This document shows positions 1-526 of a stretch of DNA of 526 nt, piece after piece. The stretch lies in sequence record EF517080.1. The stretch is one strand, 5' to 3'. Within the stretch, counting starts at the first letter, position 1. Each line of letters begins with the position of its first letter. The notes below the pieces were generated by a model. The model worked only from the letters and a program-made list of their open reading frames with translations, had not been told where the DNA came from and ran no database searches. Both the position numbers and the translations under genes were made by a program. This stretch comes from a phage.

Positions 1-1
1 G

Positions 2-238
2 GAAGGGGCTCATCCGGTTAAACAGGTTGCTGGCGGTCTAGCTGGTCTGGCTGGTGGTACTGATGAAGCACAGATGGTGGTAGTACCACAAGCTGCCGCA
101 CAGATTGTTGACGTACCTGAGAAAGAGGTTTCCACTGAGGACGAAGCACAGACAGAAAGCGGACGCAAGAAAGCTCGTGCTGGCGGTAAGAAATTCTTGA
201 GTGTAACCCGTAGCTCCGGTGACGGTATCAACATTTAA
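2..238 (+). CDS. 7.3: 5'-truncated CDS (78 codons + TAA) for a T7-like small virion / tail-assembly protein (gp7.3-like); start codon lies upstream of the window
   Basis: Seen in sequence: frame beginning at position 2 is open to the window edge and ends at TAA 236..238. Translation: EGAHPVKQVAGGLAGLAGGTDEAQMVVVPQAAAQIVDVPEKEVSTEDEAQTESGRKKARAGGKKFLSVTRSSGDGINI*. It is followed 2 nt later by a consensus SD and the next gene, typical of tightly packed phage late operons. Identity as gp7.3 is from my recollection of T7 gene order (7.3 then HNH gene 7.7) and protein character, not from an alignment. Confidence 0.75.
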   Translation, partial: EGAHPVKQVAGGLAGLAGGTDEAQMVVVPQAAAQIVDVPEKEVSTEDEAQTESGRKKARAGGKKFLSVTRSSGDGINI

Positions 239-240
239 TC

Positions 241-246
241 AGGAGG
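241..246 (+). promoter_or_regulatory. Shine-Dalgarno ribosome-binding site (AGGAGG) for the downstream HNH gene
   Basis: Seen in sequence: AGGAGG at 241..246, a 5-nt spacer (TTATC, 247..251), then GTG start codon at 252..254. It lies 2 nt after the TAA of the upstream gene, which suggests translational coupling. Confidence 0.75.
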
Positions 247-251
247 TTATC

Positions 252-526
252 GTGGAAAACTGCATTGAATGGACCGGAGGTGTCAACTCTAAGGGTTATG
301 GTCGTAAGTGAGTTAATGGTAAACTTGTGATTCCACATAGGCACATCTATGAGGAGACATATGGTCCAGTTCCAACAGGAATTGTGGTGATGCATATCTG
401 CGATAACCCTAGGTGCTATAACATAAAGCACCTTACGCTTGGAACTCCAAAGGATAATTCCGAGGACATGGTTACCAAAGGTAGACAAGCTAAAAGAGAG
501 GAACTAAGCAAGAAACTTACAGAGTC
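252..526 (+). pseudogene. 7.7: HNH-family homing-endonuclease-like gene (T7 gp7.7-like), GTG start, interrupted by in-frame opal TGA at 309..311; 3'-partial (runs off window)
   Basis: Seen in sequence: GTG 252 opens MENCIEWTGGVNSKGYGRK, then TGA at 309..311. The same frame continues without any stop to position 524: VNGKLVIPHRHIYEETYGPVPTGIVVMHICDNPRCYNIKHLTLGTPKDNSEDMVTKGRQAKREELSKKLTE. Established knowledge: GYG...HR...E..YG.VP.G..V.H.CDN..C.N...HL is the signature of phage HNH (HNH_3-type) endonucleases. Called pseudogene only because of the internal stop; if that stop is a base-call error this is an intact CDS 252..>526. Confidence 0.7.

Follow-up and report, generated by a model that had tools for sequence, protein, structure and literature searches.

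A premature opal codon in gene 7.7 of a T7 genome segment with a mutagenesis-type substitution pattern

In the 526-nucleotide stretch of phage DNA analysed here (EF517080.1; the whole stretch is referred to as the window), a frame that starts with GTG is ended by a TGA codon after a few codons and then continues, still open, into sequence for an HNH endonuclease. The question raised by this locus is whether the TGA marks the true end of a gene, the inactivation of a longer one, a stop that is tolerated because it is leaky, or an error in the sequence. A first-pass annotation had favoured a recent single-base event in an HNH endonuclease gene and had offered nonsense inactivation of a dispensable selfish gene, a base-call error and a tolerated leaky stop as interpretations.

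Position of the stop in gene 7.7

Using megablast against the 50,697 phage records of INPHARED, we found that the best match of the window is wild-type T7 with 97.9% DNA identity. In a base-by-base comparison, T7 19597-20122 was the counterpart of the window over all 526 bases, with 11 substitutions and 0 indels; at all other positions, the window has the base of laboratory T7. Gene 7.3 is represented by its last 79 codons and gene 7.7 by its first 91, with a spacer of 13 bases between them (Table 1). As in T7, gene 7.3 is located directly upstream of gene 7.7, and gene 8 is beyond the window end. No promoter-like or terminator-like sites were found within the window. The start codon of gene 7.7 (GTG, 252-254) is located 3' of an AGGAGG sequence at 241-246, which is predicted to pair with the 3' end of the 16S rRNA at −11 kcal/mol, and the same GTG (T7 19848) is the start of gene 7.7 in NC_001604, where this gene is annotated as an HNH endonuclease.

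The frame from GTG 252 gives VENCIEWTGGVNSKGYGRK and then stops at TGA 309-311 after 19 codons. Past this TGA, no further stop occurs in the frame up to the window end, a length of 71 complete codons (312-524) and 2 bases, which includes HICDNPRCYNIKHL. Both observations had been made in the first-pass annotation, and we reproduced both of them. The accompanying argument that a random frame would not stay open held in part: the probability that a random frame is open for 71 codons is about 0.03, so that the open length is weak evidence alone, but the identity of the stretch as HNH coding sequence stood. Because the DNA is 97.9% identical to T7 gene 7.7 and its translation matches the Pfam family HNH_3 (PF13392), we consider the stretch past the stop to be genuine 7.7 coding sequence. 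Specifically, residues 29-70 of the conceptual read-through translation match the HNH_3 profile with 50.8 bits and an E value of 1.3e-13 (Pfam gathering cut-off, 24.8 bits). This domain is located wholly downstream of the stop, as is the HxCDN...C.N..H core, while the part upstream of the stop comprises the invariant Cys4 and the GYG motif and no part of HNH_3. In the conceptual translation, His48-x-Cys50-Asp-Asn, Cys55, Asn57 and His60 as well as Cys4 and GYG are present, and these are conserved in 27 IMG/VR homologues. A PDB sequence search returned no usable relative of gp7.7, i.e., no solved relative is detectable by sequence. Between the start codon and the nuclease domain, the frame is broken by TGA at codon 20 and, as judged from its sequence, gene 7.7 in the window is a disrupted allele (pseudogene) and no functional member of the HNH_3 endonuclease genes.

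Position 311 of the window corresponds to T7 19907 and carries a G>A change. Codon 20 is TGG (Trp) in T7, with the protein reading GYGRKWVNGK as stated in the first-pass annotation, and it is also TGG in phiA1122, YpP-R and the T7 isolates K, K115, P and P82. Among more distant homologues from IMG/VR, 27 of 27 read through codon 20 with assorted residues and sense codons. We also looked for homologues that end at codon 20, as would be expected if the TGA were a natural gene end, and found none among those examined. An in-frame TGA at codon 20 occurs in none of the relatives compared, and an exact 37-mer spanning the TGA was absent from IMG/VR and from the JGI metagenome contigs. These results support that a recent single-base TGG>TGA change interrupted a normally continuous gene 7.7. 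The description of the gene as otherwise intact had to be given up, as the frame also carries D3N, T27I, G82R and one synonymous change.

We note that an 86-codon antisense open reading frame (ORF) with a TTG start overlaps the broken gene 7.7 on the minus strand (228-488) and is a mechanical ORF. Exact look-ups of this 86-amino-acid ORF and of a 30-amino-acid plus-strand ORF gave no record in the gene-position collection. The antisense ORF is a possible mis-call by gene callers in genomes with a disrupted gene 7.7.

Table 1. Features of the window and substitutions relative to T7
Feature	Position	Strand	Remark
Gene 7.3, 3' part (tail/host-range protein)	1..238	+	Codons 21-99 plus stop TAA 236-238
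G>A vs T7, gp7.3 R25H	12	+	Only GC>AT change away from 5'-RG
G>A vs T7, gp7.3 G42D	63	+	
A>T vs T7, gp7.3 E48V	81	+	Only transversion
C>T vs T7, gp7.3 S86F	195	+	
G>A vs T7, gp7.3 A90T	206	+	
G>A vs T7, gp7.3 G95D	222	+	Neighbour base 221 mutated in isolate K (G95S)
Shine-Dalgarno (SD) AGGAGG of gene 7.7	241..246	+	Same as in T7
Truncated gene 7.7 frame	252..311	+	GTG start, 19 sense codons (VENCIEWTGGVNSKGYGRK), then TGA
G>A vs T7, gp7.7 D3N	258	+	
Premature opal codon TGA (W20*)	309..311	+	TGG ancestral; G>A at 311 in 5'-GG context
Rest of gene 7.7, predicted to be untranslated	312..526	+	Codons 21-91 of 130, open in frame, runs off window end
Nearest in-frame potential restart GTG, codon 26	327..329	+	16 nt after stop; SD −2.8 kcal/mol, very weak
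C>T vs T7, gp7.7 T27I	331	+	Downstream of stop
Region that would encode Pfam HNH_3 (PF13392)	336..461	+	Residues 29-70, includes HICDNPRCYNIKHL
Hypothetical restart ATG (Met47), just before HICDN	390..392	+	AGGA 9-10 nt upstream, −5.0 kcal/mol
G>A vs T7, gp7.7 Q79Q	488	+	Only synonymous change
G>A vs T7, gp7.7 G82R	495	+	

Substitution pattern of the window

The 11 differences between the window and T7 comprise 8 G>A, 2 C>T and 1 A>T change and, thus, 10 of the 11 are GC>AT (p about 1e-7 under a uniform model). Six of the 11 are in gene 7.3, and all of these are missense (R25H, G42D, E48V, S86F, A90T and G95D), and those in gene 7.7 are D3N, W20*, T27I, Q79Q and G82R, of which Q79Q is the single synonymous change among the 11. 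Relative to a neutral expectation of 27%, 1 of the 10 GC>AT hits is synonymous [P(≤1 of 10) = 0.20], and purifying selection is not apparent from the synonymous fraction. Nine of the ten transitions are located at 5'-RG sites (purine before G) compared to a baseline of 56%, with p = 0.028 on only ten transitions. The 8:2 split between G>A and C>T does not represent a significant strand bias given the G/C content (p = 0.33).

A 5'-RG preference is typical of SN1 alkylating agents such as nitrosoguanidine. On ten transitions, other GC>AT agents such as EMS are not separable from nitrosoguanidine, while for hydroxylamine the RG context would not be expected. We also considered whether the mutator was a DNA cytosine deaminase. 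The bases 5' of the mutated C are A, A, T, G, G, T, C, A, C and C and display no TC/CC-type preference, while the 5'-RG preference of alkylation is present, making a deaminase unlikely. As summarized in PMC6042481 with reference to Springman et al. 2010 and Bull et al. 2013, GC>AT mutations dominate in T7 after treatment with nitrosoguanidine or hydroxylamine.

As a benchmark, we used the T7 isolates K, K115, P and P82 (AY264775-AY264778) and compared isolate K genome-wide with the wild type AY264774. We take these isolates to be the lineages that were propagated with nitrosoguanidine in the Hillis/Bull experimental phylogeny and in Bull et al. 2003; their records list isolate names only. Isolate K differs from AY264774 by 416 substitutions (1.06% of the genome), of which 93% are GC>AT (196 G>A and 191 C>T, with no strand bias), and 80% of the GC>AT changes are at 5'-RG compared to a baseline of 51%. 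The window is statistically indistinguishable from isolate K in both spectrum (Fisher, p = 0.56) and 5'-RG context (p = 0.69). With 2.1%, its substitution density is about twice the genome mean of isolate K but within the range of that genome, in which 526-base windows hold a mean of 5.5 and a maximum of 13 substitutions, and 5.4% of them hold at least 11. Within the same 526 bp, isolate K has 9 substitutions of its own. Over the whole of gene 7.3, it has 5 missense and 0 synonymous changes and, over the whole of gene 7.7, 5 missense and 2 synonymous changes; the 7.3/7.7 region is tolerant of amino acid change in isolate K too. Genome-wide, we counted 205 missense, 165 synonymous and 3 nonsense changes in this isolate, and all 3 nonsense changes are TGG>TGA (W48* in gene 4.7, W52* in gene 5.7 and W13* in gene 5.9, at AY264774 positions 14071, 17306 and 17398, respectively). 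The depositors annotated these three genes as 'similar to gene x' with no CDS. Trp codons are apparently the main nonsense target of isolate K's mutagen in T7.

None of the 11 variants of the window (0/11) is present in K, K115, P or P82 and, therefore, the window represents an independent lineage of the same kind as isolate K rather than a descendant of any of these four isolates. The evidence for a mutagenised origin is accordingly the signature itself, since no variant is held in common with these isolates and neither the TGA allele nor the gp7.3 variant was found elsewhere in our searches (for gp7.3, a protein search including the members of the two best clusters).

For comparison with natural divergence, we pooled the differences of phiA1122, YpP-R and 13a from T7 over the same stretch. 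In these relatives, 15 of 56 changes are GC>AT, AT>GC transitions and transversions also occur, and synonymous changes number 36 of the 56. The window differs from them in both spectrum (Fisher, p = 1e-4) and synonymous fraction (Fisher, p = 0.0016), and its pattern is unlike the divergence of wild T7 relatives. We suggest treating the window as laboratory T7 that bears a mutagenesis signature rather than as a natural variant, and not taking its amino acid differences in gp7.3 for natural host-range variation.

Two codons of gene 7.3 have changed independently in separate lineages. At codon 48 (79-81), the window has V, isolates K and K115 have K, and the Logan protein P0125 (53 contigs) has A; at codon 95 (221-223), the window has D and the same two isolates have S. 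Such repeated change could reflect laboratory adaptation of the tail protein at these sites; for codon 95, an RG hotspot is an alternative. gp7.3, which is annotated in NC_001604 as required for virion infectivity, appears to be either unusually substitution-tolerant or under diversifying pressure in the laboratory. Separately, the hypothetical protein MTQ91_09130 recorded for Staphylococcus hyicus is gp7.3-like and of the T7 group, with 93% identity across 56% of the query. Its contigs reach 78,688 bp, and the record is probably a coliphage contamination or a mis-assigned contig.

Origin and consequences of the W20* stop

Based on these data, W20* is very probably a null allele of the non-essential gene 7.7 that is tolerated in a chemically mutagenised T7 lineage, the mutagen probably being a nitrosoguanidine-type agent. 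[quoted passage not shown] Ribosomes would then initiate at the strong SD/GTG 252, terminate at UGA 309-311 and release a 19-residue peptide. Because the Pfam domain is located wholly past the stop, this product would be without the nuclease domain; with HNH_3 (residues 29-70) not made, the allele would effectively be null.

The probability that ten GC>AT hits in this coding sequence create at least one nonsense codon is about 0.33 and, therefore, the stop needs no special explanation. As one of eleven mutagen-type changes in 526 bases, it is an ordinary by-product of heavy mutagenesis. According to the account of Cunningham et al. 1997 given in PMC5850294, nitrosoguanidine-grown T7 evolved 11 nonsense codons, all by GC>AT. 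A TGG>TGA change in a non-essential T7 gene is thus the expected and already published outcome of growth with a GC>AT mutagen, and there is no sign of a new mechanism in the W20* stop.

Several deposited T7 genomes are missing gene 7.7 in whole or in part, which bears on its dispensability. In OL964749 ('Mutant T7 clone T7_1t2'), gene 7.3 runs directly into gene 8 and gene 7.7 is deleted (1438-1475 of the OL964749 stretch examined). In two further T7 records, MZ375289 and MZ375292, the match to the window breaks off at base 251, and in PV223880 it breaks off at base 512. Moreover, a viable T7 delta-2.8 delta-7.7 phage and a triple homing-endonuclease deletion phage have been built (bioRxiv 10.1101/2025.09.07.674715). 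Because deletion mutants are viable, gene 7.7 is dispensable, and because it is a non-essential gene for a free-standing HNH endonuclease, the phage is expected to tolerate its loss. Among the readings offered in the first-pass annotation, nonsense inactivation of a dispensable endonuclease gene is therefore best supported, given the deletion in OL964749 and the viable engineered mutants. The W20* allele provides a further data point for the dispensability of gp7.7 under the propagation conditions of the lineage, and gene 7.7 in the window should be annotated as disrupted. At the distal end of the gene (T7 20226-20246), the 7.7 stop codon and the ATG of gene 8 share bases (TAATG), and a GGAG is located upstream. 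A premature 7.7 stop would abolish any translational coupling to gene 8, which encodes the essential head-tail connector; this loss should be tolerable because gene 8 has its own GGAG.

The alternatives differ in whether the TGA is real, how it arose and whether it still allows a product. If the phage truly has TGG and the A at 311 was miscalled in sequencing or assembly, the single-base distance of TGA from the ancestral codon would be explained, but the change at 311 is of the same class (G>A at 5'-RG) as most of the other differences in the window, neither an alkylation-like spectrum nor such a density is expected from errors, and positions 305-315 are without homopolymer or indel context. 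Moreover, TGG>TGA nonsense codons in three other genes have been accepted in deposited lineages of the sister type. Because the change fits the dominant mutation class of the lineage, a base-call error is not needed as an explanation; we regard it as improbable and infer that 311 carries a true mutation. A wild T7-like phage with a decaying selfish homing endonuclease gene would also yield an interrupted frame. Gain and loss of free-standing HNH genes are common, in most T7 relatives the DNA match extends no further than the end of gene 7.3 (about window 247), and 13a, the one such relative inspected, has a divergent HNH gene in the 7.7 slot. However, relatives of similar or greater divergence have mixed transitions and transversions that are mostly synonymous, whereas 10 of 11 changes in the window are GC>AT and 10 of 11 are non-synonymous, including the six missense changes in gene 7.3, and outside the 11 positions the window is laboratory T7. 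Natural pseudogenisation is, thus, a very unlikely origin of the stop. The stop could instead have been positively selected, if removal of gp7.7 speeds growth in laboratory culture. In agreement with such an adaptive loss, independent laboratory T7 genomes, whether through evolution or engineering, are without gene 7.7 (OL964749 by annotation, MZ375289 and MZ375292 by the end of their match at 251), and nonsense mutations recurred in parallel in nitrosoguanidine-grown T7 (Cunningham 1997, as described in PMC5850294). On the other hand, gene 7.7 is open in K, K115, P and P82, and selection is unnecessary given the 33% chance of a nonsense codon from mutation pressure alone, so that we give adaptive loss little weight.

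Finally, the truncated gene could yield a reduced but meaningful dose of nuclease through a leaky stop or through a restart at GTG 327 or ATG 390. In E. coli, tRNA-Trp is known to decode UGA as a near-cognate codon, and basal read-through of this kind would restore the wild-type residue at codon 20. For a restart, GTG 327 is close to the stop, and ATG 390 is preceded by AGGA. In total, the potential in-frame restart codons are GTG 327, GTG 384, GTG 387, ATG 390 and ATG 468, and their SD pairing is weak (−2.8 to −5.9 kcal/mol compared to −11 kcal/mol at the native start). Products of these restarts would lack Cys4 and GYG (as with GTG 327) or a part of HNH_3, amounting to about a third of the domain for ATG 390. 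Neither a Rfam match (none at E ≤ 1 in the window) nor a stimulatory structure 3' of the stop was found, as the fold of 300-400 had z = −0.19 relative to shuffled sequences, like the wild type, and TGA is present in no relative. The suggestion of a tolerated leaky stop is, therefore, not borne out, with neither a recoding structure nor conservation of the TGA, and a functional leaky stop or restart is exceedingly unlikely. Similarly, we rejected programmed UGA recoding (selenocysteine or stimulated read-through), for which there was no Rfam match, unusual fold or conserved TGA. It is likewise hard to credit, with only a very slim chance of being correct, that W20* was selected in a mutagenised lineage as a dose-reducing switch, in which tRNA-Trp read-through would keep a trace of gp7.7 nuclease while relieving its cost. 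We therefore favour a null allele that arose by mutagenesis.

Comparison with known systems

The closest known counterpart is T7 gene 7.7 itself (NP_041994; HNH_3, PF13392), which has the same locus, synteny after gene 7.3, SD and GTG start as the window and an identical HICDNPRCYNIKHL core. The two differ at codon 20 (TGA in the window and TGG in T7) and by D3N, T27I and G82R, and from the window allele only a 19-residue peptide is the expected product. Isolate K resembles the window in its T7 backbone, GC>AT excess, 5'-RG context, excess of missense changes in genes 7.3 and 7.7 and TGG>TGA nonsense changes; unlike in the window, gene 7.7 is open in K, K115, P and P82, and none of the 11 variants is present in these isolates. 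The nitrosoguanidine-grown T7 of Cunningham et al. 1997, as far as it is described in PMC5850294, is like the window in that T7 acquired nonsense codons by mutagen-driven GC>AT change. OL964749 and T7 delta-2.8 delta-7.7 share with the window allele the loss of gp7.7 function in a viable phage, as predicted for the latter. In these two, the DNA has been removed, whereas in the window the coding sequence is kept and would be silenced by a single base. Because the coding sequence is retained and a single base is changed, the window allele could revert.
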